DNA from: Opitutales bacterium
GTDB taxonomy: Bacteria; Verrucomicrobiota; Verrucomicrobiia; Opitutales; PNEW01
Length of the DNA stretch: 32,000 bases
NCBI GenBank assembly: GCA_965219535.1
Contig: CBDCNV010000002.1
Coordinates: 1,410,001-1,442,000 of the forward strand
Direction: 5' to 3'
This document shows, one piece after another, positions 1 to 31,272 of the stretch (position 1 is its first letter; each line of letters starts with the position of its first letter). Below the pieces are notes generated by a model. The model was not told the origin of the DNA. It saw nothing but the letters and a program-made list of their open reading frames with translations, and did no database searches. A program made the position numbers and the translations under genes.

Positions 1-94
1 TTTCTATCGATCCCAACTCATTGAGTGGATGGAGAAAACGGAAGATCCGATGCGGACCCAATTAGGAATTTAGATTTATGATGCTGTAAAGGTG

Positions 95-145
95 CTGCCC
101 GCCCTGAGCTCGATGATATCCCTGAGCTCGTCGAAGGGTCGAAGG
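95..145 (+). repeat. I module (CCTGAGC..GTCGAAGGG type), internally duplicated copy
   Basis: CTGCCCGCCCTGAGCTCGATGATATCCCTGAGCTCGTCGAAGGGTCGAAGG. Confidence 0.65.
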
Positions 146-175
146 TAAGCAAGCCATTCATGTATCTTTCTTTCT

Positions 176-250
176 GATATCCGACGTTTGATATTTGATG
201 TTTGATGTTTGAAGTGCTTTAATTACATCGCATATCAAATATCGGATATC
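176..250. repeat. GATATC-rich hairpin (F module) copy 1
   Basis: Arms GATATCCGACGTTTGATATTTGATG (176-200) and CATCGCATATCAAATATCGGATATC (226-250) pair at 21 of 25 positions. Confidence 0.8.
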
Positions 251-279
251 GTACCGAGGACGAAGTCCGACGTCTTCCA
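251..279 (+). repeat. G-element (GTACCGA-hairpin-GACATCTTCCA) copy 1
   Basis: GTACCGA GGAC-gaa-GTCC GACGTCTTCCA. Confidence 0.9.
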
Positions 280-297
280 AATCGTATATCTTTCCCA

Positions 298-333
298 CCG
301 AACCGTTGAACCGTGAACTGTGAACGGTGAACC
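298..333 (+). repeat. Degenerate GTGAAC-type heptamer array (5 units)
   Basis: CCGAACC GTTGAAC CGTGAAC TGTGAAC GGTGAAC C. Confidence 0.6.
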
Positions 334-383
334 CTCAAATTTCGATTGCAGAAAAGGGAAGTGTTATCAATCTGGAAAACACG

Positions 384-1145
384 ATGGGGAAATTAACGGG
401 TAAAGTTGCGCTGGTAACGGGCGGGGGTCGTGGACTTGGTCGGGCTTATGCGCTGCACCTGGCGAAACTGGGGGCGGATGTGGTGGTTAATGATATCAGC
501 ATGAAAGCGCATGAAGAGTACAATGAGGAAATCGGCGCGGACTCCGTTCCGGAAGAGATAGAAGCTCTGGGTGTGCAGGGCGTGGGGATTGTCGCTGATG
601 TGTCTGATAAAAAGCAGGTCGAGAAGATGGTGGCCGATATAGACGCAAAGTTCGGCCAACTGGATATTTTGATAAACAATGCGGGTGGCGCGCTCTGGGG
701 AGCCCGGGATTTTGATCCGATGTTTGCCTTGAATTTTCACGGGACAGTCTACTGTTGCGAGGCGGTCGCGGAAATTATGAAACGGCAGGGATCGGGCAAG
801 ATTGTTAATGTGGGCAGTCAGGCTGGAATGCGGGGAGGTGAAGGCGGTGCGTATGCAACAGCGAAGGCAGCAGTGATTCATTATACCCGCTGTTTGGCGC
901 TGAGCCTGGGACCGCATCAGATAAATGTAAACTGCATTGCACCGGCCTGGATATTAAGTTCACGCGCTATTGCGGGAGGTCGAGGAGAGAAGGAGACACG
1001 TGAAAAACTGGAGGCTACTATTGCCCTCGGTCGATTGGGTGTGCCGGATGACTGTGCAAAAGTCATTGAGTTTCTGGTCACGGATTTGTCAGACTATGTG
1101 ACCGGACAGACGATCGCGGTGTGTGGTGGCAATGTGCTGTTTTAA
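384..1145 (+). CDS. SDR-family oxidoreductase (short-chain dehydrogenase/reductase)
   Basis: ORF 327..1145. The translation has the TGGGRGLG Rossmann motif, NNAG and the YATAK catalytic motif. Start placed at ATG 384 (MGKLTGKVALVTGG) because the GTG at 327 lies inside the upstream GTGAAC heptamer array; exact start uncertain. Confidence 0.85.
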   Translation: MGKLTGKVALVTGGGRGLGRAYALHLAKLGADVVVNDISMKAHEEYNEEIGADSVPEEIEALGVQGVGIVADVSDKKQVEKMVADIDAKFGQLDILINNAGGALWGARDFDPMFALNFHGTVYCCEAVAEIMKRQGSGKIVNVGSQAGMRGGEGGAYATAKAAVIHYTRCLALSLGPHQINVNCIAPAWILSSRAIAGGRGEKETREKLEATIALGRLGVPDDCAKVIEFLVTDLSDYVTGQTIAVCGGNVLF

Positions 1146-1156
1146 ACGGAGCCTAT

Positions 1157-2272: not shown

Positions 2273-2278
2273 ATATGA

Positions 2279-2307
2279 GTCAAAAGTCGAAGGTCTAAAG
2301 TCGAAAG
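2279..2307 (+). repeat. GTCGAAR heptamer array (C module)
   Basis: GTCAAAAGTCGAAGGTCTAAAGTCGAAAG. Begins 6 nt after the enolase-family stop. Confidence 0.8.
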
Positions 2308-2322
2308 CGTGGGAGAAGAATA

Positions 2323-2339
2323 GTGAACAGTAAACAGTG
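2323..2339 (+). repeat. GTGAACA/GTAAACA heptamer array (A module)
   Basis: GTGAACAGTAAACAGTG, abutting G-element copy 2. Confidence 0.8.
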
Positions 2340-2367
2340 TACCGAGGGTATATCCCGACATCTTCCA
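2339..2367 (+). repeat. G-element copy 2
   Basis: GTACCGA GGG-tatat-CCC GACATCTTCCA. Confidence 0.9.
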
Positions 2368-2374
2368 CGGTGGA

Positions 2375-2395
2375 CAGTGAACAGTAAACAGTGAG
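2375..2395 (+). repeat. A module
   Basis: CAGTGAACAGTAAACAGTGAG. Confidence 0.8.
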
Positions 2396-2600: not shown

Positions 2601-2619
2601 TGAAACCCTTTCGCGTTTA

Positions 2620-2652
2620 CTTTTTGACTTTTTGACCTTTTGACTTTTTGAC
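2620..2652 (-). repeat. GTCAAAAG octamer array (B module), 4 units
   Basis: CTTTTTGAC TTTTTGAC CTTTTGAC TTTTTGAC on the plus strand. Confidence 0.85.
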
Positions 2653-2687
2653 GGAGGGAATGTTCGGTTCACCGAACACCTCCCTCC
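2653..2687. repeat. Strong hairpin enclosing the stop codon of the SBP-permease gene
   Basis: GGAGGGA..GTTCGG-ttca-CCGAAC..TCCCTCC, a two-part stem of about 13 bp. No U-tract follows on the gene strand (GTCAAAAAG array instead). Confidence 0.7.
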
Positions 2688-5600
2688 ATCCTAATCCGCG
2701 GATCGAGCCACATGAGCAGAAGGTCGCTGACAAGGGTGCCTAAGACTCCGAACAGGCTGAGTACCATGAGCATCGATCCGGCCAGATACATATCTTCTAT
2801 CATCAGGGCATCGAGCAATAACGGGCCGACGGTGGGCAAGCTGAGCACCATCGCGACAATGGCACCGCCGGAGACGAGTTGGGGAAAGATCGCGCCGATA
2901 CTGGAGATAAACGGATTGAGCGCCAGGCGCACAGGATATTTAATCAACACTTTAAAAGGTCGCAACCCTTTGGCTATCGCGGTAATAACGTAAGGTTTTC
3001 TCAACTCGTCGAGCAAGTTGCCACGCATGACCCGGATCATACTCGCGGTTCCCGTGACACCGAGGACGACAATGGGCACCCAGATGTGCTGCAGCAGGTC
3101 GACAATTTTTCCTCTTGTCCACTCCGGTTGGACAGCGTACTCGGGTGAATACAGACCCGTGACATTAATGCCCAGATACTTCGCACTCCAATAGAGCAGA
3201 ATCAGTGCGAGGAGAAAACTGGGAACACTCATCCCGATGAAACCGATCAACGTAAATAGATAATCACCCAAGGTATATTGGCGAACGGCCGAATAGATGC
3301 CGATGGGCAGAGCGACAGCCCAGGTAAATAAAATGGTGCCAAGTGAAATAAGAAAAGTAAGCAGGATGCGATCGCCTACCACTTCATTGACGGTGTTTTG
3401 GTTCTCCATCGACAATCCCATGTGACCCTGCAGTAATCCCTGGTCTTTCTTTTCAAAGGAAGTAAACCAGTAAAGCCCAAGCCAGCGGGCGTACTGCTCG
3501 GTGATGGGCTCATCGAGGTTAAAAATCTCGCGCAGCTTATCGACTTCTTTCATATCCGAGCTGCTGCCTCTTAACTGCAGCTCCATGATTTTAGTATCGA
3601 TGAAATTCCCCGGTGGCAGCTGGATGATTACAAAAGAAATGACCGAGATGATGAGCAGCGACGGAATCATGATGAGCAACCGCCTTCCGATGTAAGGGTG
3701 CCGCACCCCGGTCATTATTATACCGCAGACAAAAACACCGATAAACAAATACTTAATCAGTAATCCCAGGCGATTAACGCTTTTCGATTCACCTTCGGCG
3801 TCAACCAGACCGTAAGGGGCAGGAGTGATTTCGATTAATTCTTTTTTTATCTGCGCAATCGTTCCAGGAGAATGATAAGAATCTTCGAAATAGTAGGTTT
3901 CTAACCCCGCGTGGGCGGGTGGGTGGAAGCGATTACCATAAAACGCGAGGCGGGGAACATTTTTAAAATCGTTTTTGACCACGACCGGGTGCGGCGGCGC
4001 AGTACCTATATTGATCGACCAGACATTTTCTGCCGCGATGTCGAATATTTTATGGAATTGTTCACGTTGCGCTTCACGGGTGGTCGCACCGAAAGCGGAT
4101 TCGAGCAGTATCATCGATCGCCGTAAGGGATGATCGATCGGGGGCTCGATCCCGCCGAATTGAGTGGCTTCAGGATTGCCTGAAAGTCCCCCTCCTAAAT
4201 ACCACTTAAAATAGCCGAATGCTTGAAGACCTGTTAACCCAACAAATCTTTCAGGTCCCACAAGAGGATTGAATTCACTTTCGGTGGCCCAAATGGAAAT
4301 TTCCACTTGGCGCGAATTTTGTTCTGCGGAAAAGAGCGGTAGCGAAGGCTGACGTCGGATAGCGCGAATACCGACACGGCCCCAATCTTCGATGACGAGC
4401 TCAGTAGGCCCCTCGTCTTCCCCCTCCGGCAATGAATAATGCCAGGTCATACGCGTGCCGTCCTTAAACGTGCGGTAACCTTCTGAATCCCTGCCGGTGA
4501 GACCTATCGCATCGAGTATTTGATTGGCCTGTTCGGGCGCATAATCGGTAAAACTTTTATGCAGTTTTTCATGGTGAAAATACGATTCCCTTCCGGGTGA
4601 TAACTGCGCGGGCTCTCCCATCCCATTATAAACGATATCGATGATTTGCCGGCGGTTGATGGCGAGGGAGAGCGCCTGGCGGAAACGCTTGTCTATTAAA
4701 AGATCATGTTTCATCTGGGTGACCGGATTATCGGGATCGACCAAAAGGTTCATATTCGCATGGATGAGGTAACGCGAGCGTGTAGCGGGAAACCAGTGAT
4801 ACACTTCGTAATCATTGTCTTCTCGTTGTGACATGAGAAGGGTGTATGAGAGTTCCATATTCCAAATTAAGAAGGTGATCGCCCCGCTGGCAGCTGATAC
4901 AGGTATCAGATTATAATTTTTTACTTCGTAAAATAATTGATCCACATAGGGGAGCTGATTGCCTTCGGTATCAACGGCCCAGTAGTAGGGATTGCGGACA
5001 AAAACCTGGGGAGGGTTGGCGTTATAAGTACGATAGATCCAGGGCCAAAGTCGCGGGATTGCGGGGTTTGACCAAAGTTTCAATAAATAGTAGAGCCTAC
5101 TGCGCGACGGCAATCTTCTCTCCTCCAGGGTAGCCTCGATGAGCGCGTCATCGCCGATTACAGGGTTATACTTTTCCAGGTAATGACGGGGCGCGCAATA
5201 TTCAGTGGCTCGAGCCAGGCGTTCAAGAAATGTTCCATAAGGTTGAGGGAAAACGAACTTTACGGTGTGATCATCGATTTTTATAACATCCCCTCTCTTA
5301 CCGCCTATATCCATCCAATCGGCAGTTTCCATCCCAAGGATATTAAAAGGTATTTCTTTTTCCCACCAGTAGAGGATATCATCGACGGTAAAAGGGTGTC
5401 CATCAGACCATTTCATCCCTTTTCGCAGGTAAAAGGTCCATTCCCTCTTGTCGGGACTGGATTCCCAACCCTTGGCGACGTGAGGCACGATCGGGTAACC
5501 GAGCGCAGAGAAGCGCACTAGCGTGGATCCGGCATAATATCCCTTGACTCCACCCACTTCTGTTGGGGAACCCACCACTTGCAACCAGGTACCGCCATAG

Positions 5601-5953
5601 TTGCCGATACTGTCCACTCCTTTGAGCACCACCGGCTCGGGCCCCACACGTTCAGCAACCGGTGGCAGTTTTCCCTCCTTTACCAAGTCAGTAAAAAGGG
5701 GTGATTCGGATTTTGGATACCACGTGCTCGATTCACCCACACTGTAGTCAACATCCTGTTGAATTTGAAAAATATCATCCTCGGTGAAACTCACATCTCT
5801 TGAATTATTTATGAATTCAATTTCCTCCGGGTCATAGTAAATGGGTTCCTCTTCCAGATCCGGTTTTAAGATATCACTCCAGAGATATAGAAAACCGAAA
5901 AAGCAACAACCCGTGAGGAAGAGAAGAAGGAAGGTTTTTAAAATTTTATTCAT
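2669..5953 (-). CDS. Fused ABC-transporter protein: N-terminal TM anchor + family-5 (Dpp/Opp-type) solute-binding domain + linker TM + DppB/OppB-type permease
   Basis: 1094-aa ORF. It has a TM helix at the N-terminus (FLLLFLTGCCFFGFLYLW) followed by an SBP_bac_5-like core (VPHVAKGWESSPDKREWTFYLRKGMKWSDGHPFTVDD). An extra TM helix follows (LIKYLFIGVFVCGIIMTGV, about nt 3700-3775). The canonical DppB-like permease then starts at RRLLIMIPSLL, with EAA-loop region YVITAIAKGLRPFKVLIKYPVRLALNP and C-terminal LDPRIR. Confidence 0.9.
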   Translation of the reverse strand: MNKILKTFLLLFLTGCCFFGFLYLWSDILKPDLEEEPIYYDPEEIEFINNSRDVSFTEDDIFQIQQDVDYSVGESSTWYPKSESPLFTDLVKEGKLPPVAERVGPEPVVLKGVDSIGNYGGTWLQVVGSPTEVGGVKGYYAGSTLVRFSALGYPIVPHVAKGWESSPDKREWTFYLRKGMKWSDGHPFTVDDILYWWEKEIPFNILGMETADWMDIGGKRGDVIKIDDHTVKFVFPQPYGTFLERLARATEYCAPRHYLEKYNPVIGDDALIEATLEERRLPSRSRLYYLLKLWSNPAIPRLWPWIYRTYNANPPQVFVRNPYYWAVDTEGNQLPYVDQLFYEVKNYNLIPVSAASGAITFLIWNMELSYTLLMSQREDNDYEVYHWFPATRSRYLIHANMNLLVDPDNPVTQMKHDLLIDKRFRQALSLAINRRQIIDIVYNGMGEPAQLSPGRESYFHHEKLHKSFTDYAPEQANQILDAIGLTGRDSEGYRTFKDGTRMTWHYSLPEGEDEGPTELVIEDWGRVGIRAIRRQPSLPLFSAEQNSRQVEISIWATESEFNPLVGPERFVGLTGLQAFGYFKWYLGGGLSGNPEATQFGGIEPPIDHPLRRSMILLESAFGATTREAQREQFHKIFDIAAENVWSINIGTAPPHPVVVKNDFKNVPRLAFYGNRFHPPAHAGLETYYFEDSYHSPGTIAQIKKELIEITPAPYGLVDAEGESKSVNRLGLLIKYLFIGVFVCGIIMTGVRHPYIGRRLLIMIPSLLIISVISFVIIQLPPGNFIDTKIMELQLRGSSSDMKEVDKLREIFNLDEPITEQYARWLGLYWFTSFEKKDQGLLQGHMGLSMENQNTVNEVVGDRILLTFLISLGTILFTWAVALPIGIYSAVRQYTLGDYLFTLIGFIGMSVPSFLLALILLYWSAKYLGINVTGLYSPEYAVQPEWTRGKIVDLLQHIWVPIVVLGVTGTASMIRVMRGNLLDELRKPYVITAIAKGLRPFKVLIKYPVRLALNPFISSIGAIFPQLVSGGAIVAMVLSLPTVGPLLLDALMIEDMYLAGSMLMVLSLFGVLGTLVSDLLLMWLDPRIRMEGGVR

Positions 5954-5983: not shown

Positions 5984-6010
5984 CAGTGAACAGTAAACAG
6001 TGAACAGTGG
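5984..6010 (+). repeat. A module upstream of SBP-permease gene 1
   Basis: CAGTGAACAGTAAACAGTGAACAGTGG. Confidence 0.85.
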
Positions 6011-6037
6011 AGAATCAGTGTTAAATTTTAGTTGAGA

Positions 6038-6111
6038 GGTGGAGCGGGCTGTCCCCAGCGCGCTTACTTTTTAAAAATTTATATAAACGTGCTGGGACAG
6101 CCCGTTCCACC
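6038..6111. repeat. Long hairpin (O module pair): about 24-bp GC-rich stem, 25-nt AT-rich loop
   Basis: GGTGGAGCGGGCTGTCCCCAGCGCG ...CTTACTTTTTAAAAATTTATATAAA... CGTGCTGGGACAGCCCGTTCCACC. Confidence 0.85.
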
Positions 6112-6130
6112 TAATACGCTTTTGCGTCTT

Positions 6131-6185
6131 TACCTAAAACTTGACACTTAAAACCTAACACGCGCGATGACTTCCGTCATCGCGC
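6131..6185 (-). terminator. Hairpin containing the stop codon + U-rich heptamer array 3' of the SBP-permease paralogue
   Basis: GCGCGATGA-cttccg-TCATCGCGC (6162-6185, 9-bp stem; the stop codon is in one arm). On the transcript it is followed by GUGUUAGGUUUUAAGUGUCAAGUUUUAGG. Confidence 0.45.
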
Positions 6186-9100
6186 TCCTCCTTCCATCCT
6201 AATCCTTGGATCGAGCCACATGAGCAAGAGGTCACTGACGAGGGTGCCTAAGACACCGAGCAGGCTGAGTACCATGAGCATCGATCCGGCCAGATACATA
6301 TCTTCTTTCATCAGGGCATCGAGCATTAAAGGCCCGACCGTTGGAAGGCTGAGCACCATCGCTACTATGGCGCCTCCTGAGATGAGTTGGGGAAAGATTC
6401 CACCGATGCTGGAAATGAATGGATTGAGCGCCAGGCGCACGGGATATTTCAGCAACAGCTTAAAGGGTCGCAGCCCCTTGGCCATCGCAGTAATGACATA
6501 AGGTTTTTTCAGCTCGTCCAACAGGTTACCGCGCATGACACGGATCATACCCGCGGTTCCAGTGACACCCAGAACGACAATCGGCACCCAGATGTGCTGC
6601 AACAAGTCGACAATCTTTCCTCGGGACCATCCAGGTTCAATCGCGTATTCGGGTGAAAATAGACCCGAGATATTAATCCCAAGATATTTCCCACTCCAAT
6701 AAAGTAGAATCAACGCAAGAAGAAAGCTGGGAATGCTCATCCCGATAAATCCGATCAAGGTGAAAAAATAATCACTCAAAGTATACTGGCGAACAGCTGA
6801 ATAGATGCCAATCGGCAAAGCGATCGCCCAGGTAAATAAAATCGTACCGAGTGAAATAAGAAAAGTGAGAAGGATGCGATCCCCAACCACTTCGTTGACC
6901 GTGTTCTGGTTCTCCATCGATAATCCCAGGTGACCCTGCAGTAAGCCCTGGTCTTTTTTTTCAAAGGAAGTAAACCAATTAAGGCCGAGCCAGTGCGCGT
7001 ATCGTTTAGCGATGGGCTTATCGAGGAGAAAGATCTCGCGCAGCTCTTCGATCTCATCGCTATTTATTTGACCTCCTTTTAATTGCAGCTCCAGGATTTT
7101 GGTCTCAATGAAATTCCCCGGAGGAAGCTGGATGATTACAAAAGAGATGACCGAGATGATAAGAAGGGTCGGGCCCAAAATGAGCAGCCGCCTTCCTATG
7201 TAGGGGTGCCTTACTCCAATCATTACCACTCCGCAGGTGAAAACACCGATAAATAAATACTTAATCAATTTTGCCAGGTGAATAACACTTTTCGATTTGC
7301 TCTTATCCTCCACTAGACCGTAAGGAGCGGGGGTTATTTCGAGTATTTCCTTTTTGATCTGAGCAACGGCTCCAGGTGATTCATCAGACTCTTCGAAGTA
7401 GTAGGTTTCTATTCCAGCCTGGGATGGCGGATTAAAGTAATTGCCATAGAATGCATTGCGCGGAATATTTTTAAAACCGTTTTTGACTACAACCGGGTGT
7501 GGTTGCGAGGTGCTTATATTGATCGACCAGACATTTTCCGCCGCAATGTCGAACACTTTATTGAAATGCTCACGTTGCGCTTCGCGCGTGGCCGCACCGA
7601 AAGCTGCTTCGGCTATTTCCATCGATCGCCTCATGGGATGATCGATCGGGGGCTCGATTCCTCCGAGTTGAGCAGCATCAGGATTGCCTGAAAGTCCACC
7701 TCTCAAATACCAGATATAGTAGCCGTATGCTTGGAGTCCCGTTAACCCGATAAAACGCGAGTATCCCAAAATAGGGTTGAATTCACTTTCTGAGGGCCAA
7801 ATGGAAAATTCCAATTGGCGTGATGTTTGTTTAAAGTAAAAAGAGAAAGCGCTGGCTGTTGTCGTATAGCGCGAATACCGACACGAGCCCAATCTTCAAT
7901 GATGAGCTCAGTCGGCCCTTCGAGCTCCCCCTCCGGGAGTGTAAAATTCCAGACCATGCGCGTACCATCCTTAAATGTGCGGTAGCCTCGCGCATCCCTA
8001 CCGGTTAGCCCTATCGCATCAAGCAGTTGATTGGCCCGGTCGGGCGCATAGTCGGTAAAGCTTTTATGTAATTTTTCATGGTGGAAAAACGATTCCCTCC
8101 CTGGTGATAACTGCGCGGGTTCCCCCACCCCATTGAATACGATGTCGATAATTTGCTGGCGATTGATGGCAAGGGAGAGCGCCTGGCGAAAGCGCTTGTC
8201 TATTAATAGATCATGTTTCATTTGGGTAACCGGATTATCAGGGTCGACCCTAAGATTTTGATTCGGATAGATGAGAAACCGCGAGCGTGTAGCAGGAAAC
8301 CAGTGATACACTTCATAGTCGTTTGTTTCGCGTTGTGACATGAGCAGGATATAGTTTAAATCCATACTTTCAAAAATCTTAAAGGTAATGGCCCCGTTGG
8401 CCGCTGCGATGGGAATCAAATTATAGTTTTTAACGTCGACAAATAATTGGTCCACATAGGGAAGCTGATTACCTTCGGTATCGACTGCCCAGTAGTAGGG
8501 ATTGCGGACAAATACCTGGGGAGGGTTGGCTTTATAAGTATGATATATCCAGGGCCATAGCCGTGGGTGTTCGGGATTGTTTGTTAATTTTAATATTACG
8601 TATAGGCTTCTACGCGATGGCAGTCTTCTCGCCTCGAGGGTAGCTTCGATGAGAGAATCATCACCGAGTTTCGGATGGTATTTTTCCAGGTAATGCCGCG
8701 GTGAGCAGAAATCACTGGATTTAGCCATGAAATCAAGAAACGATCCATAAGGTTGAGGAAAAATGAACTTTACGGTATAATCATCAATTTTTACAGTTTC
8801 TCCCACCTTTCCCCCCACTTTCATCCACTGGGGCGGTAAACTTCCCGGATATACAGGATCGGTTTCTCCATATAGACGGTAAAGGATATCGTCGGCAGTA
8901 AAAGGGTGACCATCGGACCACTTCATGCCTCGGCGCAAATAAAAAACCCATTCCCTCTTGTCGGGACTGGATTCCCAACCCTTGGCCACATGAGGCACAA
9001 TCGGGTAACCGAGCGGAGACCAGCGAACAAGTGTGGAACCTGAAGAGAAGGAAACAATTTTACGTATATCATTTTGTGATCCTGCCACTTCAAACCAGGT

Positions 9101-9494: not shown

Positions 9495-9520
9495 CAGTGA
9501 ACAGTAAACAGTGAACAGTG
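9495..9520 (+). repeat. A module upstream of SBP-permease gene 2
   Basis: CAGTGAACAGTAAACAGTGAACAGTG. An inverted partner lies at 9740-9770. Confidence 0.85.
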
Positions 9521-9662
9521 AGAAAGTAGTGTCTAAGGTCAAAGGTCGGGGATGAATGGATGGTAGGAATGATGGAAGATTGAAATTCCCTTCGGTTCAA
9601 CACCAATTCTCCATACTTCCATACATCCAATATTCCATTTAAACCGCTGAACGGTGAGTCTA

Positions 9663-9686
9663 GGGTACAGCCCGACATCTTCCACC
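9663..9686 (+). repeat. G-element copy 5 (5' flank diverged)
   Basis: GGG-tacag-CCC GACATCTTCCACC, with TCTA in place of CCGA. Confidence 0.6.
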
Positions 9687-9770: not shown

Positions 9771-9780
9771 TAATTTTCTT

Positions 9781-11732: not shown

Positions 11733-11737
11733 AGCGA

Positions 11738-20588: not shown

Positions 20589-20598
20589 GAGGATCAGT

Positions 20599-22231: not shown

Positions 22232-22246
22232 GCGCGCGGGCGCGCG
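22232..22246. repeat. GC hairpin directly after the MlrC-like stop codon
   Basis: GCGCG-cggg-CGCGC, followed by an A-rich B module, so not a canonical intrinsic terminator. Confidence 0.55.
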
Positions 22247-22269
22247 TCAAAAGGTCAAAAAGTAAACAC
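22246..22269 (+). repeat. B module 3' of the MlrC-like gene
   Basis: GTCAAAAGGTCAAAAAGTAAACAC, preceded by the GC hairpin at 22232-22246. Confidence 0.8.
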
Positions 22270-22280: not shown

Positions 22281-22312
22281 CACTTTCGACTTTCGACCTT
22301 TGACTTTAGACC
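22281..22312 (-). repeat. C module
   Basis: CACTTTCGACTTTCGACCTTTGACTTTAGACC on the plus strand. Confidence 0.85.
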
Positions 22313-22364
22313 ATTCAATCTCTGATTGAATGTCCCACCGTTCAGCGGTTCTGGTCCTCCGGTT

Positions 22365-22398
22365 TGGAAGATGTCGTTCCGCGACTGCGGAACTCGGA
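22365..22398 (-). repeat. G-element copy 10 (long-stem variant)
   Basis: Reverse complement reads TCCGA GTTCCGC-agtc-GCGGAAC GACATCTTCCA. It begins 9 nt after the PhyH-3 stop, in gene sense. Confidence 0.8.
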
Positions 22399-22406
22399 AC
22401 CGCCTT

Positions 22407-23318: not shown

Positions 23319-23357
23319 CATGTCGATCTTTTTGTAATTGAATAGGTGTCTGGTGTC
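23319..23357 (-). repeat. L module upstream of PhyH paralogue 3
   Basis: CATGTCGATCTTTTTGTAATTGAATAGGTGTCTGGTGTC (36 of 39 identical to the other copy), 30 nt from the start codon. Confidence 0.8.
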
Positions 23358-23394
23358 CCTTCGACTTCGCTCAGGGCAGGCAGGGTGTCGAGGG
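23345..23394 (-). repeat. I module, long copy (inverted)
   Basis: A 39-nt core (23352-23390) is the exact reverse complement of the core of 17069-17129. Confidence 0.85.
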
Positions 23395-23412
23395 AGAAGC
23401 GCTAGCGCGCGT
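23384..23412 (+). repeat. N module
   Basis: GGTGTCGAGGGAGAAGCGCTAGCGCGCGT. Confidence 0.8.
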
Positions 23413-23422
23413 GTTTAAAAAA

Positions 23423-23451
23423 GTCTAACGTCGAAGGTCGAAAGTCGAAGG
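23423..23451 (+). repeat. C module
   Basis: GTCTAACGTCGAAGGTCGAAAGTCGAAGG. Confidence 0.85.
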
Positions 23452-23465
23452 CAGGGGAGGGGATT

Positions 23466-23535
23466 AGTAAACAGTGAACAGTGAACAGTGAACAGTGAAA
23501 GAGCGCTGACGCGCGCGTTAAGATTTAGGTTAAAG
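23466..23535 (+). repeat. Composite A-H-D module copy 2
   Basis: AGTAAACAGTGAACAGTGAACAGTGAACAGTGAAAGAGCGCTGACGCGCGCGTTAAGATTTAGGTTAAAG. Confidence 0.85.
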
Positions 23536-23568
23536 ATATCGGTATCGAAATCGGGATCGGGTGTCGAG
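23535..23568 (+). repeat. P module
   Basis: GATATCGGTATCGAAATCGGGATCGGGTGTCGAG. Confidence 0.65.
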
Positions 23569-23691
23569 TATCAGGAAATAACGTTTTTTTAAATCCGCAA
23601 CTTGTCACGCCGTAGCTGGCGAAGGCGGATCCGCATTCCTCAATCCGCAATCGATTGACATCCATAATCCGTCGATTAGCGTTGAAATCGC

Positions 23692-25402: not shown

Positions 25403-26854
25403 ATGAAGTCCAAAACCATCGCGTCAGTCGTCCTGCTACTGAGCGTTTTCGCAATGCCGCTAACCGCCACCGATCCCATCGCCATAGACTCGCGGCGGGA
25501 ACTGTTTATTGATCATCATTTGATCGGATCGCTCAACGGTGTGCGCCTCGTGTTGCATCGCCCGCAACCGCGCGAAATCGTCTTCGAGTTCGATCAGCCC
25601 TGGGAGGGACTCTACAGCGGGTACGAGACCGTGCTCAAAGACGGCGAGACCTACCGGTTCTATTATCGGGGGATGCCCGAAGCAAAACACGATCTCGATA
25701 CGGAAGTCATCTGTGTCGCGGATAGCAAAGACGGTATTCACTGGACGCGGCCCAAACTGGGCATATACGAAGTCCGCGGCACGAAAGACAACAACGTGGT
25801 GCTGGCGCGTAATCGCGGCTGCCACAACCTCGCACCGTTCATAGACACCAATCCGAATTGCCCGGCCGAAGAACGGTATAAAGCGCTGGGCGGGACCGGC
25901 GAACCGGGTCTGCTGGCCTTTGTATCGGCCGACGGTCTGCACTGGAAGCAACTCCAGGCGGACCCTGTAATCACCAAAGGCGCATTTGATTCCCAGAACA
26001 ACGCATTCTGGTCCGTCAGCGAAAAACAGTACGTTTGCTATTTCCGAGTCTTCCGGGATGGAATTCGTTGGATTGCGCGTACGACGTCGATGGATTTCGT
26101 CCACTGGACGGAACCGATCGACCTGGAGCTTGGCGGCCAGCCCCGCGAACACCTCTACACGAACCAGTTCGACCCCTACGTCCGAGCTCCGCACATCTAT
26201 CTGGGACTTCCTACGCGTTACCTGCCCGGGCGTCGTGTATTGACGGACGAGGAAGCCAAAGGGATCGGCACACCCACGAAATGGAACTACGTCGATGATA
26301 GTACGGACATCCTGCTTGCATCAGCACGCGGTGGTGACAACTTCCAGCGCACATTCATGGAGGCCTTTGTTCGGCCGGGAGCAGACCTGCAAAACTGGAC
26401 GTCACGAGCAAATTACGCGGCGCGCGGCATCGTGCAAACGGGCGAACGAGAATTGTCCCTCTTCGTGAAGCACCACTCCGGCTATCCCTCGAATCACGTC
26501 CAGCGCTATGTGATCCGACCGGACGGCTTTGTCTCCGTGCAAGCTCCTTACAACGGTGGCGAGTTGATCACCAAACCGTTCACCTTCACCGGCGCAAAGT
26601 TGTCGCTTAACTACGCCACTTCCGCTGTAGGTGGGATATTCGTCGAGATTCAGACTCCCGACGGTAAACCAATCGAAGGATTTGCACTTGCGGACTGCTT
26701 GGAAATGATCGGAGACCGGATATACCACACCGTAAACTGGAAAAAAGGTTCGGATGTGAATTCCCTGGCCGGCAAGCCCGTCCGAGTGAAGTTCGCAATG
26801 AAAGACGCCGACCTCTACTCGATGCAATTCACTAGCAGGGGAGGGACAAAGTGA
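25403..26854 (+). CDS. Secreted protein, predicted beta-propeller glycoside-hydrolase-like fold (function unknown)
   Basis: ORF 25382..26854. Start moved to ATG 25403 (MKSKTIASVVLLLSVFAMPLTA signal peptide). Repeated segments such as DQPWEG...YRFYYRG, SKDGIHWTRP, SADGLHWKQ and SMDFVHWTEP resemble blades of GH32/43-type propellers. The family assignment is from pattern memory only. Confidence 0.6.
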   Translation: MKSKTIASVVLLLSVFAMPLTATDPIAIDSRRELFIDHHLIGSLNGVRLVLHRPQPREIVFEFDQPWEGLYSGYETVLKDGETYRFYYRGMPEAKHDLDTEVICVADSKDGIHWTRPKLGIYEVRGTKDNNVVLARNRGCHNLAPFIDTNPNCPAEERYKALGGTGEPGLLAFVSADGLHWKQLQADPVITKGAFDSQNNAFWSVSEKQYVCYFRVFRDGIRWIARTTSMDFVHWTEPIDLELGGQPREHLYTNQFDPYVRAPHIYLGLPTRYLPGRRVLTDEEAKGIGTPTKWNYVDDSTDILLASARGGDNFQRTFMEAFVRPGADLQNWTSRANYAARGIVQTGERELSLFVKHHSGYPSNHVQRYVIRPDGFVSVQAPYNGGELITKPFTFTGAKLSLNYATSAVGGIFVEIQTPDGKPIEGFALADCLEMIGDRIYHTVNWKKGSDVNSLAGKPVRVKFAMKDADLYSMQFTSRGGTK

Positions 26855-26874
26855 ACGGTGAACAGTAAACAGTG
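26851..26874 (+). repeat. A module containing the stop codon of the preceding gene
   Basis: GTGAACGGTGAACAGTAAACAGTG. The TGA stop (26852-26854) is part of the first unit. Confidence 0.85.
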
Positions 26875-26902
26875 TACCGAGGGTATGTCCCGACATCTTC
26901 CA
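26874..26902 (+). repeat. G-element copy 11 (left end of MITE-like copy a)
   Basis: GTACCGA GGG-tatgt-CCC GACATCTTCCA. Confidence 0.9.
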
Positions 26903-27038
26903 TCCAGACCGAGCACCAAACATCAATTATCAAATCACAAATAAGCTCCAATGATTGAAATACCAATTCATGAAATAAATGAAAAGACAGTTTGGTTATT
27001 TATAATTGTAAATTGGATTTTATTTGAAATTTGTGATT

Positions 27039-27065
27039 GGGGGATGTCGGGCTTTGCCCTCGGTA
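27039..27065 (-). repeat. G-element copy 12 (right end of MITE-like copy a)
   Basis: Reverse complement reads TACCGA GGGC-aaa-GCCC GACATCCCCC. Confidence 0.85.
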
Positions 27066-27109
27066 GCTTTTTGTAATTTCTCGACTTGTCCTCGACTCCC
27101 CTGAACCCT

Positions 27110-27138
27110 GTACCGAGAGCGTAGCTCGACATCTTCCA
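27110..27138 (+). repeat. G-element copy 13
   Basis: GTACCGA GAGC-gta-GCTC GACATCTTCCA. Confidence 0.9.
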
Positions 27139-27149
27139 CCCTGAACCCT

Positions 27150-27177
27150 GTACCGAGGGTATATCCGACATCTTCCA
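27150..27177 (+). repeat. G-element copy 14
   Basis: GTACCGA GGG-tatat-CC GACATCTTCCA (one stem base missing). Separated from copy 13 by CCCTGAACCCTG. Confidence 0.85.
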
Positions 27178-27289
27178 CCGTGAACCGAGAGAGAAAAGAG
27201 AAGGAGTCAGACCCTGCATTTTCGCAATTATAATTTTGCAGGAACGCAGAGCCTAACCCCTTTAGACCTTCGTTAGTAATCACGCTCTC

Positions 27290-27878: not shown

Positions 27879-27892
27879 ACAGACATGTCTGT
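27879..27892. promoter_or_regulatory. Candidate TetR operator O2 (perfect palindrome ACAGACATGTCTGT) upstream of the osmC-like gene
   Basis: A perfect 14-bp palindrome lies in the 71-nt tetR-osmC spacer, 35 nt upstream of the osmC ATG. It has the same half-sites as the site upstream of tetR. Confidence 0.6.
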
Positions 27893-27915
27893 CTGTTTTA
27901 TTCGAAAAAAATATA

Positions 27916-28500
27916 TTATTTAATAAGCGACTCTACTTGCCTTATCGCGTGGCGTACAGGCCACAGTTCATGATATATCATCACCAGAGCAATCGCTCCC
28001 GTAAGTATGTTTAAGTAATCGTTTGTTAAGATTTCGACATCGAGATGTCTGTATTTTTTCCCGTCGGACTGTATAAGGTCAGATGAGATGTCTTTAATGA
28101 TTGCCTTCAAAGTTTCATAATGGAATTTACTCTCCTTTCTTACCGGATCTGCATGATTAGAGATCTCGGGCACCATACGAAGGAAACCGCAGCCGTGCAG
28201 CCCATTTTCTATAATCCATGGCTCAATACATTCAATCAAAGCCATAAACCTGGTCCGTGGAGTTTTCTTTTCGTGGATAGCAGCTTTTATATCCCGGATC
28301 TCCTTAATATTAAGATTGGTGATATACGCTAAGTTCAAGTGATCTTTAGTCGGAAAATGCGAATAGAATGTGGCCTTTGATACGTTTGCTTTCTTTATAA
28401 TTTCGTTCGTCCCGGTTTGATGATACCCCTGTTGGTAGAACAACTCTGTTGCCGTCTTCAAAATCCGGTCTCTCGCTGGACTGTCTTTCTTTACCATCAT
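27916..28500 (-). CDS. TetR/AcrR-family transcriptional regulator
   Basis: 194-aa ORF. N-terminal HTH RDRILKTATELFYQQGYHQTGTNEIIKKANVSKATFYSHFPTKDHL. It lies upstream of, and co-directional with, the OsmC-like gene. Confidence 0.9.
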   Translation of the reverse strand: MMVKKDSPARDRILKTATELFYQQGYHQTGTNEIIKKANVSKATFYSHFPTKDHLNLAYITNLNIKEIRDIKAAIHEKKTPRTRFMALIECIEPWIIENGLHGCGFLRMVPEISNHADPVRKESKFHYETLKAIIKDISSDLIQSDGKKYRHLDVEILTNDYLNILTGAIALVMIYHELWPVRHAIRQVESLIK

Positions 28501-28517: not shown

Positions 28518-28533
28518 GACAGACCTGTCTGTC
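28518..28533. promoter_or_regulatory. Candidate TetR operator O1 (GACAGAC-CT-GTCTGTC) upstream of tetR
   Basis: 7-bp inverted arms with a 2-nt centre, 18 nt upstream of the tetR ATG. It shares ACAGAC-NN-GTCTGT with O2. Confidence 0.6.
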
Positions 28534-28620
28534 AAGTATTTTTAAAAAAAAATGCCTATAAGCACAAACAGGTACTTTAACGTGTTAAATTTAAATAGGT
28601 TAGGACCTGTGTGGGGGGAT

Positions 28621-28646
28621 CAGTGAACAGTAAACGGTGAACAGTG
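28621..28646 (+). repeat. A module
   Basis: CAGTGAACAGTAAACGGTGAACAGTG. Confidence 0.85.
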
Positions 28647-28702
28647 GGAGAGTTGCGTGTTATTTCTAATGGAGATTATTATATTTCCCTGAACCCTGAA
28701 CC
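28639..28702 (+). repeat. Q module
   Basis: AACAGTGGGAGAGTTGCGTGTTATTTCTAATGGAGATTATTATATTTCCCTGAACCCTGAACC. Confidence 0.55.
28687..28702 (-). repeat. E module (C-strand)
   Basis: CCCTGAACCCTGAACC. Confidence 0.75.
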
Positions 28703-28727
28703 TCTTCATTCGTATATCGTTCTACCT

Positions 28728-28803
28728 GATATCCGACGTTTGATATCCGATGTTTGATGTGCAAGAAGTTAAATCAACATCGTATATCGCATATCAGATA
28801 TCA
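28728..28803. repeat. F module copy 3
   Basis: GATATCCGACGTTTGATATCCGATGTTTGATGT...ACATCGTATATCGCATATCAGATATCA, followed directly by the tail TAGATCGTATATCTTTC with no G-element. Confidence 0.75.
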
Positions 28804-28825
28804 TAGATCGTATATCTTTCTCCCT

Positions 28826-28885
28826 GTACCGAGGGCATAGCCCGCCTGTCGTCCATAGCCTTGTGCGACGGATGGACATCTTCCA
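28826..28885 (+). repeat. G-element copy 15, expanded (left end of MITE-like copy b)
   Basis: GTACCGA GGGC-ata-GCCC, then a 31-nt insert (GCCTGTCGTCCATAGCCTTGTGCGACGGATG, itself able to pair GTCCAT/ATGGAC), then GACATCTTCCA. Confidence 0.75.
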
Positions 28886-29015
28886 TTCAGACCGAGCACC
28901 AAACATCAATTATCAAATCACAAATAAGCTCCAATGATTGAAATACCAATTCATGAAATAAATGAAAAGACAGTTTGGTTATTTAATAATTGTAAATTGG
29001 ATTTTATTTGAAATT

Positions 29016-29041
29016 GGGGATGTCGGGCTTTGCCCTCGGTA
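29016..29041 (-). repeat. G-element copy 16 (right end of MITE-like copy b)
   Basis: Reverse complement reads TACCGA GGGC-aaa-GCCC GACATCCCC. Confidence 0.85.
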
Positions 29042-29109
29042 GTGATTTGATATTTTCTCGACTTCTCCCGGCATCTTCAACAGAGAAAATTATAAGTAAT
29101 TAAAAGAAG

Positions 29110-29137
29110 CGTGCTAGGGACAGCCCGCTCCACCTAA
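29110..29137 (+). repeat. O module, single copy upstream of the Gfo-AKR fusion gene
   Basis: CGTGCTAGGGACAGCCCGCTCCACCTAA vs 6088-6115 CGTGCTGGGACAGCCCGTTCCACCTAA. Confidence 0.8.
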
Positions 29138-29166
29138 AACCTAACACTGCGGGGCCGCGCACTTCA

Positions 29167-31167
29167 ATGAAAAACAAACTCAAGTGGGGTATCCTCGGAC
29201 CGGGGAGGATCGCAGATAAATTTGCTATTGGCGTGCGGGAATCTGCGCACAGTGAACTCATCGCGGTGGGAAGTCGCTCGCGCAAGCGGGCTGATAGTTT
29301 CGGAGATGCGCATGAGATTCCGAACCGCTACGGTTCCTATGAGAAACTCTTGGAGGACTCTGACGTCCATGCTGTATATATCGCTACGCCGCATCCTCTT
29401 CATGCCCTGTGGGCGATTCGAGCTGCGGAAGCGGGAAAACACATCCTCTGCGAAAAACCGATCGCAATCAACCACGCCGAGGCGATGGCCATCGTGGAGG
29501 CGGCATACAGGGGCGGTGTCTTTCTCATGGAGGCCTTCATGTATCGCTGCGCCCCTCAGACCGAGCGCATCGTCGAGCTGATTCAGGAAGGTGCGATTGG
29601 TGAGGTTCAAATGATCAAGGCGTCGTTTGGCTTTCATAGCCCCTACAATCTTGAGAGTCGAATTTTGAATAGAAATCTTGGAGGCGGGGGGATCCTGGAC
29701 ATAGGCTGTTACGCCGTGTCGATGGCTCGCCTGATCGCTGGTGTAGCTCGCGGGAAGGCTTTCGCCAACCCGATTAAGGTTGAAGCGTCGGGAAAGCTGG
29801 GTGACGAATCGAAGGTCGATGAGTATGCTGCCGCTCTCCTTACTTTCCCTGAAGACTTCATTGCCCAGGTGTCTACGAGTGTTCAGTTGAGTCAGGAGAA
29901 CACGGCGCAGATATTCGGGACGGAAGGGAACATACTCGTTCCCAATCCATGGACGGCAGCAAGCGGTGGCGGCCGTTGGTCCTTTACAGTCACGCGAACT
30001 TCAGGCGACGGTCCCGAGACGATTGAAGGCGACACTCCGAATTTGTACGGACTTGAAGCGGACAAAGTGGCCGAGGGTGTAGGGGCGGCGAAGAGGGAAT
30101 CACCCGCCATGAGCTGGGAAGATTCACTTGGGAACATGGAGACCCTGGACAGGTGGCGAGAAGCTATTGGTCTGGACTATCCGAAAGAAAGAATAACCTC
30201 CAAACGGCCCACCATTCACGGTCGGCCACTGAAAAAACTAACGGGCGCGCCCCTTACCTACGGACGGGTCGAAGGTATTGATAAACCCATATCCCGCCTC
30301 GTCATGGGAGTGGATAACCAGGAGAACCTGTCCCACGCCTCCATCATGTTTGATGATTTCATCGAACAGGGCGGCAACTGTTTCGACACCGCCTATATCT
30401 ACGGTCGCGGCATGCGGGAAAAGCTGCTCGGTCAGTGGATGAGAAATCGCGGCATCCGCGAAGATATCGTTCTTATCGTCAAGGGCTCACACAGTCCTCT
30501 TAACTTTCCGGAGTACGCCACAAAACAACTCTTCGAGAGCCTGGAGCACCTGCAGACCGACTACGCGGACATCTATTTTCTGCACCGGGACAATCTGGAT
30601 CTTCCTGCGGGGGATTTCGTCGAGGTTCTCAACGAACACTATCGAGCCGGACGCATTAAGGCATTTGGTGGATCCAACTGGACGACCGAACGCATCGACG
30701 AAGCCAACGCTTACGCCGATGAACATGGACTACAGCGGTTCACGGTGTGGAGCAACAACTTCAGCCTGGCGCGTATGGTCAATCCAGTCTGGGCCGGCTG
30801 CATTGCAGCTTCCGACTCGAAATCCCGGAAATGGTTAGAGAAGAATCAAATGCCACTCTTCCCCTGGTCGAGTCAGGCGCGTGGCTTCTTTACAGATCGC
30901 GCAGGGCCCGATAAACGGGACGACGAGCTCTTGGTCAGCAGTTGGTATTCAAAGGATAACTTTAAAAGACGCGAAAGAGCGATCGAGCTCGCTGAGAAAA
31001 AAGGCGTCCTCCCCATCAACATCGCGCTGGCCTACGTCCTCTGTCAGCCTTTCCCCACCTTCCCACTCTTCGGTCCGCGCGTCCTCAGTGAAACCCGCAC
31101 CTCCATCCCCGCCGTAAATATCTCCCTTACCCCCGAGGAACTCCAGTATCTAAATCTGGAAGCGTAA
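29167..31167 (+). CDS. Fusion protein: Gfo/Idh/MocA oxidoreductase (N-terminal half) + aldo-keto reductase (C-terminal half)
   Basis: 666-aa ORF. The N-terminal half has KWGILGPGRIADKF and the EKP motif (ILCEKPIA). The C-terminal half has AKR segments CFDTAYIYGRGMREKLLGQWM, IVLIVKG, DIYFLHRD and GGSNW. Confidence 0.85.
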   Translation: MKNKLKWGILGPGRIADKFAIGVRESAHSELIAVGSRSRKRADSFGDAHEIPNRYGSYEKLLEDSDVHAVYIATPHPLHALWAIRAAEAGKHILCEKPIAINHAEAMAIVEAAYRGGVFLMEAFMYRCAPQTERIVELIQEGAIGEVQMIKASFGFHSPYNLESRILNRNLGGGGILDIGCYAVSMARLIAGVARGKAFANPIKVEASGKLGDESKVDEYAAALLTFPEDFIAQVSTSVQLSQENTAQIFGTEGNILVPNPWTAASGGGRWSFTVTRTSGDGPETIEGDTPNLYGLEADKVAEGVGAAKRESPAMSWEDSLGNMETLDRWREAIGLDYPKERITSKRPTIHGRPLKKLTGAPLTYGRVEGIDKPISRLVMGVDNQENLSHASIMFDDFIEQGGNCFDTAYIYGRGMREKLLGQWMRNRGIREDIVLIVKGSHSPLNFPEYATKQLFESLEHLQTDYADIYFLHRDNLDLPAGDFVEVLNEHYRAGRIKAFGGSNWTTERIDEANAYADEHGLQRFTVWSNNFSLARMVNPVWAGCIAASDSKSRKWLEKNQMPLFPWSSQARGFFTDRAGPDKRDDELLVSSWYSKDNFKRRERAIELAEKKGVLPINIALAYVLCQPFPTFPLFGPRVLSETRTSIPAVNISLTPEELQYLNLEA

Positions 31168-31171
31168 GAGA

Positions 31172-31209
31172 GTGAACAGCCGTCGTCGCTTCGCTATGAC
31201 GTGCCAAGG
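31172..31209 (+). repeat. J module copy 2
   Basis: GTGAACAGCCGTCGTCGCTTCGCTATGACGTGCCAAGG. Confidence 0.75.
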
Positions 31210-31270
31210 TGAACAGTGAAAGAGCGCTTATGCGCGTGTTAAGTTTTAGGTGTTAAGTGTTAGGTTAGGG
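31209..31270 (+). repeat. Composite A-H-D module copy 3 (abuts IS copy 2)
   Basis: GTGAACAGTGAAAGAGCGCTTATGCGCGTGTTAAGTTTTAGGTGTTAAGTGTTAGGTTAGGG. Confidence 0.85.
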
Positions 31271-31272
31271 TC

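Follow-up and report, generated by a model that had tools for sequence, protein, structure and literature searches.

A mosaic of REP-like hairpins and heptamer arrays in the intergenic DNA of an Opitutales bacterium

The window analysed here is a stretch of 32,000 nucleotides (nt) from the genome of an Opitutales bacterium of the phylum Verrucomicrobiota (contig CBDCNV010000002.1, positions 1,410,001 to 1,442,000). It holds 24 ordinary genes and two copies of an insertion sequence (IS) of the IS481 family. Among the genes are those for a short-chain dehydrogenase, an enolase-superfamily protein, two tandem fusions of a substrate-binding protein (SBP) to a permease, four PhyH dioxygenases, adenylate kinase (adk), MlrC and TetR/OsmC. 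The spacers between these genes are the subject of this study. A first-pass annotation, made by a model from the letters of the window, had put the non-coding DNA at roughly 5 kb in long spacers and had read almost all of it as a shuffled mosaic of modules, with five unrelated tandem arrays of 7-8 nt. The amount of non-coding DNA and the length of the spacers are as claimed (5.15-5.43 kb, with a longest spacer of 666 nt); the arrays and the mosaic were likewise confirmed, and several further statements required revision, as described below. Here, we describe three families of small hairpins (R, G and K), a network of heptamer and octamer arrays and the larger palindromic composites that contain them, and we propose that these are probably selfish or neutral elements that target and carry each other.

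Extent, period and kinship of the arrays

Dispersed, non-orthologous exact 14-mers cover 47% of the intergenic bases of the window versus 3.5% of ordinary coding bases. This 47% is a minimum obtained with strict settings and the loose figure is about two thirds; to parse almost all of the spacer DNA as modules was therefore too strong. Arrays were called in a first sample consisting of the window and 31 related loci (280 kb) and in a full sample of 507 kb. In the window, Tandem Repeats Finder and our own detector agree on 20 arrays of period 7 or 8. In the first sample, with expectations taken from local shuffles, arrays of period 7 number 103 with 0.8 expected, an excess of about 100-fold, and period 8 ranks second (22 versus 0.4 expected). 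Period 6 gives 10 arrays with 2 expected and period 9 gives two, and none of period 10-12 was found in the 280 kb. Most of the heptamer arrays (94 of 103) fall in the 20% of the DNA that is non-coding. The heptamer period, which had been called striking and unexplained, is thus a strong excess. That heptamers are in excess in some bacteria has been noted since 1990. It is a recognised bias of bacterial repeats and is not unique to this DNA (PMC4692102, PMC4679880).

The five array types first distinguished, namely A (GTGAACA/GTAAACA), B (the octamer GTCAAAAG), C (GTCGAAR), D (GTKTTAR) and E (CAGGGTT), were all found at the places given for them, and there are many more families: the full sample contains 187 heptamer arrays with 47 consensus units. 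These units are not unrelated. A network of single mismatches joins 42 of the 47, representing 179 arrays, in one component, while random sets of the same composition gave a mean of 15 and a maximum of 32. The link from A to E runs through GAACAGT, GAACGGT, GAACCGT and GAACCCT, and the octamer B is GTCAAAG with one A added. Since the units form one mutational network, the shared period is at least partly inherited. In addition, one unit is common to 29 of the 103 heptamer arrays of the first sample, and two non-repetitive linkers, GGGGAGAATT before A and AGAGCGCTGACGCGCG between A and D, recur with the same units at many unlinked loci in several genomes. The arrays are mostly related by descent and not independent.

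In the window, A arrays lie at 5984-6009 and 9495-9521 (both plus strand), at 9740-9771 (minus), at 2318-2392 (plus), where a G hairpin interrupts the array at 2339-2366, and at 26850-26873 (plus), where the array ends at a G; the variants GTGAACC, GTGAACT and GTGAACG occupy 300-333 (plus), and an A array is followed by module Q and E units (28687-28702) within 28620-28702. B arrays are found at 2616-2652 (minus, four units) and 18313-18346 (minus), and in company with the small GCGC hairpin H at 9782-9824 (minus, with H at 9808-9823), 18188-18225 (plus) and 22232-22263 (plus), H standing last in the first of these and first in the second. The C type is represented by (GTCGAAGG)x2 at 130-145 (plus, called by Tandem Repeats Finder), by GTCAAAA GTCGAAG GTCTAAA GTCGAAA at 2278-2307 (plus), by four units at 10845-10875 (plus) and by an array at 22282-22316 (minus). 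A D array lies at 6135-6161 (minus); two others follow an H hairpin, one directly after the adk stop codon at 10958-11009 (minus, with a 9-bp H stem at 10989-11010 and a terminator-like score) and one at 31223-31265 (plus), which adjoins the second IS copy. E arrays comprise (AGGGTTC)x4.7 at 11737-11769 (plus), which adjoins the first IS copy in the array slot upstream of adk, and 13242-13299 (minus; CCCTGAA on the plus strand), which a plus-strand G interrupts at 13253-13280. Finally, CACCCGA heptamers accompany module I (CCCTGAGCGAAGTCGAAGGGA, 17094-17114) at 17069-17125 (plus), and an inverted copy of I lies at 23356-23376.

Hairpin families and the composites that contain them

Hairpin R is a 31-nt imperfect palindrome of the form GGTGGA, a 7-bp stem strand, TGTCCCTA, the other stem strand and TT, with a loop of 8 nt. 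Its stem is 94.1% paired and includes two compensatory pairs (7-26 and 12-21). The 36 copies in the full sample are intergenic and mostly arranged as inverted doublets, the form of repetitive extragenic palindromic (REP) sequences called REPINs (from REP doublets that form hairpins). At least nine inverted doublets have their members about 57 nt apart, and two sequence types of R pair as heterodimers. The window holds one such REPIN at 6036-6112, with inverted copies of GGTGGAGCGGGCTGTCCC at 6038 (plus) and 6094 (minus) and D-type units on both sides, and one single REP, with D units before it, at 29102-29144 (minus). The unpaired 5' REP tag GTAG (or CGTC) is absent in R; the invariant 5' end GGTGG(A), one base off GTAG, takes its place as a variant tag.

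REPs are mobilised by tyrosine transposases of the REP-associated kind (RAYTs). A RAYT motif search of the first 31 loci found none. A RAYT-like open reading frame (ORF) surfaced only in a further sample of ten loci of 21 kb, chosen around IS copies in the species of the window and including core regions (LeuRS, L31, MutS and HU). This ORF (locus L038, 7449-7886, plus strand) encodes 145 amino acids; against Pfam Y1_Tnp it reaches 24.7 bits, above the cutoff of 23. Among PDB structures it is matched best by 4er8, the E. coli TnpArep (E 8.6e-5), and both motifs, HUH and Y, align. The gene has R copies on either side, at 7359 (plus), 7940 (minus) and 7983 (plus), and is also flanked by a D array and an H hairpin; a nested K lies in one of these REPs. 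Because R is a palindrome, occurs as inverted doublets and flanks a RAYT-like gene, part of the mosaic is a true REP/REPIN-RAYT system. The analogy to bacterial interspersed mosaic elements (BIMEs) drawn in the first-pass annotation thus holds better than the window alone could reveal, with the RAYT-like gene located elsewhere in the same genome and the mosaics built around such hairpins. The vocabulary, taken to be different and richer, belongs in this part to a known family with a known class of mobilising enzyme. The enzyme that moves R is presumably this RAYT-type HUH tyrosine transposase.

Hairpin G is 28 nt long and consists of GTACCGAG, a variable 4-bp stem with a 3-nt loop and CGACATCTTCC; its ends are invariant. 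Full or degenerate copies number 16 in the window and 75 in the sampled DNA of the clade. In the stem, 92.9% of cells are paired and 15 double changes are seen versus 4.1 in shuffles, with slid controls at 18-54%. Folding of single G sequences gave no better result than shuffles, and the hairpin is visible only by covariation. G occurs within heptamer arrays, at their margins and within the palindromic element F. Besides those already given, copies in the window include the variant GACGAAGTC at 251-278 (plus), a degenerate copy at 9656-9683 (plus), a copy at 13146-13173 (minus) that is the inverted partner of 13253-13280, one within an A-type array at 16953-16980 (minus), a variant with a longer stem at 22366-22400 (minus), and two tandem copies (27110-27137 and 27150-27176) within CCCTGAA units at 27099-27186 (plus). 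The flanks of G match at 3.54 of 5 positions versus 2.28 when permuted, which resembles a repeat of 4-5 nt and is confounded by array periodicity. Since the surrounding DNA is periodic, this match is no proof of a target duplication. F copies that have G are a net 26 nt longer than copies that lack it, and in one case the repeat is 12 nt long, which equals two extra units; after these observations a clean 5-bp target duplication for G was dropped. Insertion by an HUH-type enzyme, template switching, and array-mediated conversion or deletion are all possible for G.

Hairpin K is about 30 nt long (CCAGCCGTCGCCAAGGCTATGGCCGGCAAG) and is found inside octamer or heptamer arrays. In the window it occurs at 18252-18281 (plus) and, between GTGAACA units, at 31179-31208 (plus). 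K is nested in the loop of R at five sites and in G at 28845-28871 of the window.

Two larger composites are built from such parts. F is a palindromic element resembling a MITE (a miniature transposable element with inverted repeats), whose arms are 7-nt arrays (TTTGATG / ATATCGN). The copy at 155-296 carries a G, that at 2402-2569 an inverted G pair (2449-2476 minus, 2524-2551 plus), and that at 28707-28830 none; copies with and without G both occur in other loci. The G-less copy is 87-89% identical to copies in L011, L013 and L021, with an overlapping L015 match (28697-24) at 87.5% and an L023 match (28695-28830) at 81.8%. The second composite is an element of about 190 nt bounded by an inverted G pair. 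It has two copies in the window, one at 26874-27066 (G at 26874 plus and 27039 minus) and one at 28826-29042, whose left G (28826-28884) holds the nested K mentioned above on the minus strand. Both composites have inverted ends, and a consistent target-site duplication was not found for either.

The order of the modules is constrained, not free. Of 15 D arrays, 11 have an H immediately 5' of them, as do 6 of 13 B arrays, and at least 14 of the 36 R copies come after a D array. One series, C - GGGGAGRATT - A - AGAGCGCTGACGCGCG - D - P, is shared by the window, L020 and L029; in L029, a spacer of 640 nt is made entirely of modules. In the window, one composite (20484-20626, plus) reads A - H (20516-20529) - D - P - G (20599-20626), and another (23356-23570, plus) reads inverted I - H - C - A - H - D - P, in the same order as in L020 and L029. 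The example parses proposed at the outset (13176-13281, 20437-20627 and 23319-23568) are read as claimed. Module L (CATGTCGATCTTTTTGTAATNGAATAGGTG) stands apart. Its two copies, at 20437-20466 and 23319-23348, lie 30-60 nt upstream of two minus-strand genes and, unlike the rest of these spacers, are kept at both orthologous sites of the related chromosome OY829953.1 described below. L is probably not part of the fluid mosaic and is probably a real cis element, either shared regulatory or leader sequence.

Range in related genomes and turnover of the spacers

The window is syntenic, at about 90-95% gene identity, with the closed 4.49-Mb chromosome OY829953.1, an Opitutales metagenome-assembled genome (MAG) whose genes are about 92-94% identical to those of the host, and near-identical contigs exist in two metagenome assemblies of the European Nucleotide Archive. 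L001 denotes a near-identical assembly. A cyanobacterial affiliation, entertained for the heptamers and five GCGATCGC sites of the window, was ruled out by matches to the G pattern and by the synteny with Opitutales MAGs. That pattern, GTACCGAG-N9-CGACATCTTCCA, was scanned for exactly in 185,579 species genomes, and only three Opitutales MAGs match, which places the modules in a narrow clade of this order. Modules occur in loci of the core genome, and at least six genomes of relatives contain them as well. In the IS-anchored loci of the core regions, each 21 kb holds 5-9 heptamer arrays and 3-4 octamer arrays. Relatives with 96%, 81% and 78% Adk identity have 8-20 heptamer arrays and 2-10 octamer arrays in 20 kb, with unit families largely the same as those of the window, and three loci with Adk at most 60% identical have zero arrays in 57 kb. 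Since core loci and close relatives have arrays and distant ones have none, the modules are genome-wide and clade-specific, and do not represent a local decayed element confined to this region. In JAJFLR01, a much more AT-rich Opitutales MAG (GC 37%), a G directly adjoins a 12-unit (GAATGGT) array (L030, 6473-6586); the coupling of G to arrays therefore survives large compositional divergence.

Comparison of strains, which differ by about 30 substitutions per 20 kb, reveals whole-unit changes of the kind produced by slippage (L045/L047, L043/L044 and window/L001). L047 is set apart from L045 by 30 substitutions and by 14 indels, the latter of 14, 14, 63, 7, 7, 49, 7, 8, 14, 21 and 7 nt in addition to three of 1 nt. 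Similar whole-unit indels separate L043 from L044 and L045 from L046, and the H and B composite at 22232-22263 is two octamers (16 nt) shorter in the window than in L001 (position 22246). Because the indels are multiples of the unit, they fit slipped-strand mispairing, which we infer to be their cause. Loops of 7-8 nt exceed the known capacity of MutS-type repair, and a MutS gene is present in the sampled loci of the window's species. A K lies in an indel of 46 nt by which strains of 99.3% identity differ. A difference of 29 nt between L037 and L039, considered as a new hairpin insertion, matches the other IS3-family copy in the locus and is variation within an IS. Outside any array, a de novo 7-nt tandem duplication (GTGCCAG GTGCCAG) distinguishes L045 (16134) from L047 within an ADP-ribosylglycohydrolase gene; in L047, two ORFs are called for this gene.

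Between species with about 92% gene identity, the gene-proximal borders of orthologous spacers are kept and the interiors are entirely different. The C array at 10845-10875 has four units in the window versus two in OY829953.1, where about 72 nt after the array are missing as well, and the array that G interrupts at 16953-16980 is uninterrupted at the orthologous site. Upstream of adk, every genome compared has arrays, with differing units, and G is present in three and absent in four. These arrays (11631-11766 in the window; L015, L043, L045, L047, L048 and L049) lie just distal to a conserved small hairpin, CGCTTCC-N4-GGAAGCG, and contain from 1.5 to about 12 CCCTGAA units, CACTGTT, or D units.

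The two IS481-family copies of the window (11767-13134 and 31273-32000, both minus, the second continuing past the window end) are identical, and at least 10 copies with an identical transposase occur in the same species (L033-L042). Nearly all of them directly adjoin D arrays or sit within a D-REPIN-D palindrome, which suggests that this IS prefers these repeats as a target.

Several observations concern the genes themselves. PhyH-family dioxygenase paralogues are unusually many, with four in the window and more in flanking loci, and the region is a catabolic island; gene order varies among close relatives (window; L033, L034, L037 and L043-L049). The SBP-permease genes (2669-5953 and 6177-9463) are tandem paralogues in which an SBP_bac_5 domain is fused to an ABC permease, with 74-86% nucleotide identity; the second consists of two overlapping ORFs (overlap 7742-7892), the result of a frameshift or a sequencing error, and OY829953.1 has one copy at this locus. 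An ORF without a Pfam match (18522-19367) encodes a repetitive acidic protein with units of 21-54 nt and has a 9-nt in-frame indel relative to L001. The palindromes ACAGACATGTCTGTCTGT and GACAGACCTGTCTGTC (27879-27896 and 28518-28533), which look like operators, flank a TetR-family gene (27916-28500) beside the OsmC gene.

Origin of the mosaic and its relation to known repeats

On the evidence of the repeat families, their constrained structures, the association of R with a RAYT-like gene, nesting, presence and absence at orthologous sites, whole-unit indels and clade range, we think it reasonably probable that selfish or neutral REP-like hairpins, together with slippage-prone arrays resembling the short tandemly repeated repetitive (STRR) sequences of cyanobacteria, build these spacers by targeting and carrying each other. 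A lineage-specific community of tiny non-autonomous repeats, each building on the others, would have colonised the spacers. The hairpins R, G and K would be recognised by shape, and enzymes would move G and K as well. The 7- and 8-nt arrays would gain and lose whole units by slipped-strand mispairing and would travel as flanks or arms of hairpins (H-D-R, A-H-D-P, the arms of F), and larger palindromic composites such as F and the G-bounded element would arise from such parts. Hairpins would preferentially enter arrays, array edges and other hairpins, whereas arrays would expand, contract and promote deletion or copying of the DNA between them. The outcome would be a mosaic that turns over much faster than genes, of which single copies may be co-opted, for example as terminators.

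A number of observations weigh against this proposal or limit its reach. On NCBIfam REP_Tyr_transpos the RAYT-like ORF reaches 78.1 bits and so narrowly misses the curated cutoff of 80. In the roughly 0.5 Mb sampled, the one RAYT-like gene has R copies beside it and none of G or K, and an enzyme was linked to neither of these two. The marks left by G insertion are ambiguous: the traces of transposition, of template switching and of gene conversion are alike here, and some 'empty' sites may be deletions. Most loci were picked because they hold G or the IS, and the array densities are accordingly no unbiased genome-wide estimate; the window region is somewhat enriched in modules, as 5 of the 22 G-containing tiles of OY829953.1 come from the region syntenic with it. 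Finally, the arrays upstream of adk in every genome compared could mean function instead of self-targeting, and the two SBP paralogues (A arrays at 5984-6009 and 9495-9521) have in common with the OY829953.1 orthologue a conserved A array in the leader.

The last two points bear on an explanation that makes the arrays functional cis elements: a protein reading units of 7-8 nt would bind them as tandem sites and would adjust transcription or termination at the neighbouring catabolic and transport genes, or the stability of their mRNA. Proteins of this kind exist: among ribbon-helix-helix repressors, omega binds 7-bp heptads and MetJ binds 8-bp met boxes. Cold-shock proteins, one per heptamer, on single-stranded RNA or DNA are another candidate (PMC4679880). 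The A arrays of the SBP leaders are accompanied by a small hairpin in both paralogues and the OY829953.1 orthologue, H and D directly after adk score as a terminator, the hairpin stems are structurally constrained, and the slot upstream of adk is always filled. However, 47 different units would have to be read, and unit type and number vary at the same site between close species, the number even between strains. Arrays occur in divergent, tandem and convergent spacers and are densest in the convergent, promoter-less ones (36 per 11.8 kb); relative to genes, no clear preference for one strand is seen. Sites resembling promoters or terminators show no enrichment over shuffles, no Rfam family matches, and the stem constraint is equally explained by recognition by a transposase. 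Placement, the lack of site enrichment, the Rfam result and turnover together argue against a general regulatory role, and we consider a cis-element origin unlikely. A general gene-specific function is probably absent, and local co-option is possible, e.g. of H and the D array as a terminator after adk or of the conserved A array in the SBP leaders. Even less probable are contingency loci, in which unit-number changes in promoters or leaders would tune adjacent transport and catabolic genes and be selected for heterogeneity. Unit numbers do vary among co-occurring, near-identical strains, and many arrays lie between divergent genes of the catabolic island; against this, arrays are as common or commoner in convergent and core-genome spacers, no fixed distance to a start codon or a -10/-35 pair was found, and several arrays per spacer would blur any switching.

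The arrays might instead reflect mutational bias alone, if the replisome of the clade often made 7- or 8-nt duplications, so that arrays arose independently at each locus and only REPINs and ISs were mobile. The dominance of whole-unit indels among strain differences, the de novo GTGCCAG duplication in a coding gene of L047 and the many unit types all speak for such a bias, and a polymerase footprint has been proposed as the cause of heptamer excess (Mrazek 2007, as cited in PMC4692102). Independent origin does not explain the single network of units. Also against it are the one unit shared by 29 of 103 arrays, the recurrence of the same units with the same linkers at unlinked loci of several genomes, and the presence or absence of G and K as discrete units; we regard this account as rather improbable. 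We give similarly little credence to a more far-reaching variant of our own proposal, in which the hairpin machinery itself makes and spreads the arrays. The array unit would then be the flank or target motif of HUH-type (RAYT-like) enzymes acting on single-stranded DNA, the arrays would serve as amplified landing sites carried along with R, G and K, and the geometry of the reaction would underlie the 7-nt period. An artefact of assembly or sequencing in low-coverage long-read metagenomes has a negligible chance of being correct. Some contigs do have 4-9x coverage, and 1-nt strain indels may be errors; however, the same modules appear in independent assemblies and samples, in contigs of 21x, 34x and 63x, in the closed 4.49-Mb chromosome and in three GTDB species genomes, and the indels are exact multiples of the local unit.

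The proposal of mutually targeting hairpins and arrays draws on several known systems. R is like REP/REPIN-RAYT systems in its 31-nt palindrome, covarying 7-bp stem, inverted doublets of two types and flanked RAYT-like gene, but differs in its 5' tag (GGTGG, not GTAG). REPs are abundant in Opitutus terrae (PMC3733652). Insertion of ISs into or beside the repeats has been reported for REPs, and the IS here behaves likewise. BIMEs also combine REPs with other short motifs into mosaics; here, however, the other motifs are hypervariable 7-8-nt arrays and the hairpin families G and K, and the nesting of one hairpin in the loop of another is no BIME feature. The palindromic unit (PU)/BIME motifs of E. 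coli have no sequence similarity to these modules. In E. coli, BIMEs contain alternating Y and Z units with fixed linkers and bind integration host factor (IHF), gyrase and DNA polymerase I (Pol I); here, the sequence shows R heterodimers and fixed linkers.

The arrays share 7-nt units, intergenic location, occurrence at many loci and the existence of several families with STRRs and with the arrays of Xanthomonas, Nostoc (GGGNATC) and Beggiatoaceae (TAACTGA). They differ from STRRs in their units and in their host, which belongs to the Verrucomicrobiota and is not a heterocystous cyanobacterium, and from all STRR-type arrays in the coexistence of heptamers with an 8-nt family (one A added) and in their coupling to hairpins and fixed linkers. 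The commonest unit here, AACAGTG, is one mismatch from STRR3, a likeness compatible with chance. The length of heptamer arrays also varies between close relatives at the same site elsewhere (PMC4692102, PMC4679880), and in Beggiatoaceae arrays favour sites just upstream of start codons (PMC4679880), a bias that is not seen here. Since the units here are not G-rich, a G-quadruplex reading does not apply.

The small dispersed repeats (SDRs) of Nostocaceae, which Elhai et al. are said to have described in 2008, reportedly are dispersed elements of about 21-27 nt, constant at their ends and variable in a central hairpin, which some orthologous sites contain and others lack and which are found nested; they are also said to be linked to heptamer arrays. 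G (28 nt) and K (30 nt), with their empty and filled orthologous sites and their nesting, resemble SDRs in these features. SDRs have been reported only in Nostocaceae (PMC5861425), and the host here belongs to the Opitutales. The dRS3/RS arrays of Neisseria form large mosaics between genes, with small tagged palindromes interspersed among members of other repeat families (PMC3733652); those families are different ones, heptamer arrays are lacking, and dRS3 has no dedicated transposase. Phase-variable contingency loci of simple sequence repeats (SSRs) share with the arrays the variation of unit number between clonal relatives, but their fixed placement relative to an ORF or promoter was not found here. 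The mosaic thus does not seem to be a new category but appears to combine known kinds (BIME/REPIN, STRR and SDR). Our search of the literature on Verrucomicrobia turned up neither heptamer arrays nor elements of the G or K type, and for this lineage the mosaic is apparently undescribed.

The usual models for heptamer arrays (Nostoc, Xanthomonas and Beggiatoaceae) offer few close genomes in which arrays can be watched as they change. The clade described here provides near-identical and graded long-read relatives, visible whole-unit changes, three constrained hairpin families and a RAYT candidate. On a practical level, such spacers are hot spots for mis-assembly and IS insertion and are of use in strain typing. 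If it were true that hairpin machinery makes the arrays, this would explain the co-occurrence of heptamers and tiny mobile hairpins in Nostocaceae, and perhaps in Beggiatoaceae and Xanthomonas. The origin of 7-nt arrays and the movement of elements of 30 nt or less thereby become testable in a new phylum.

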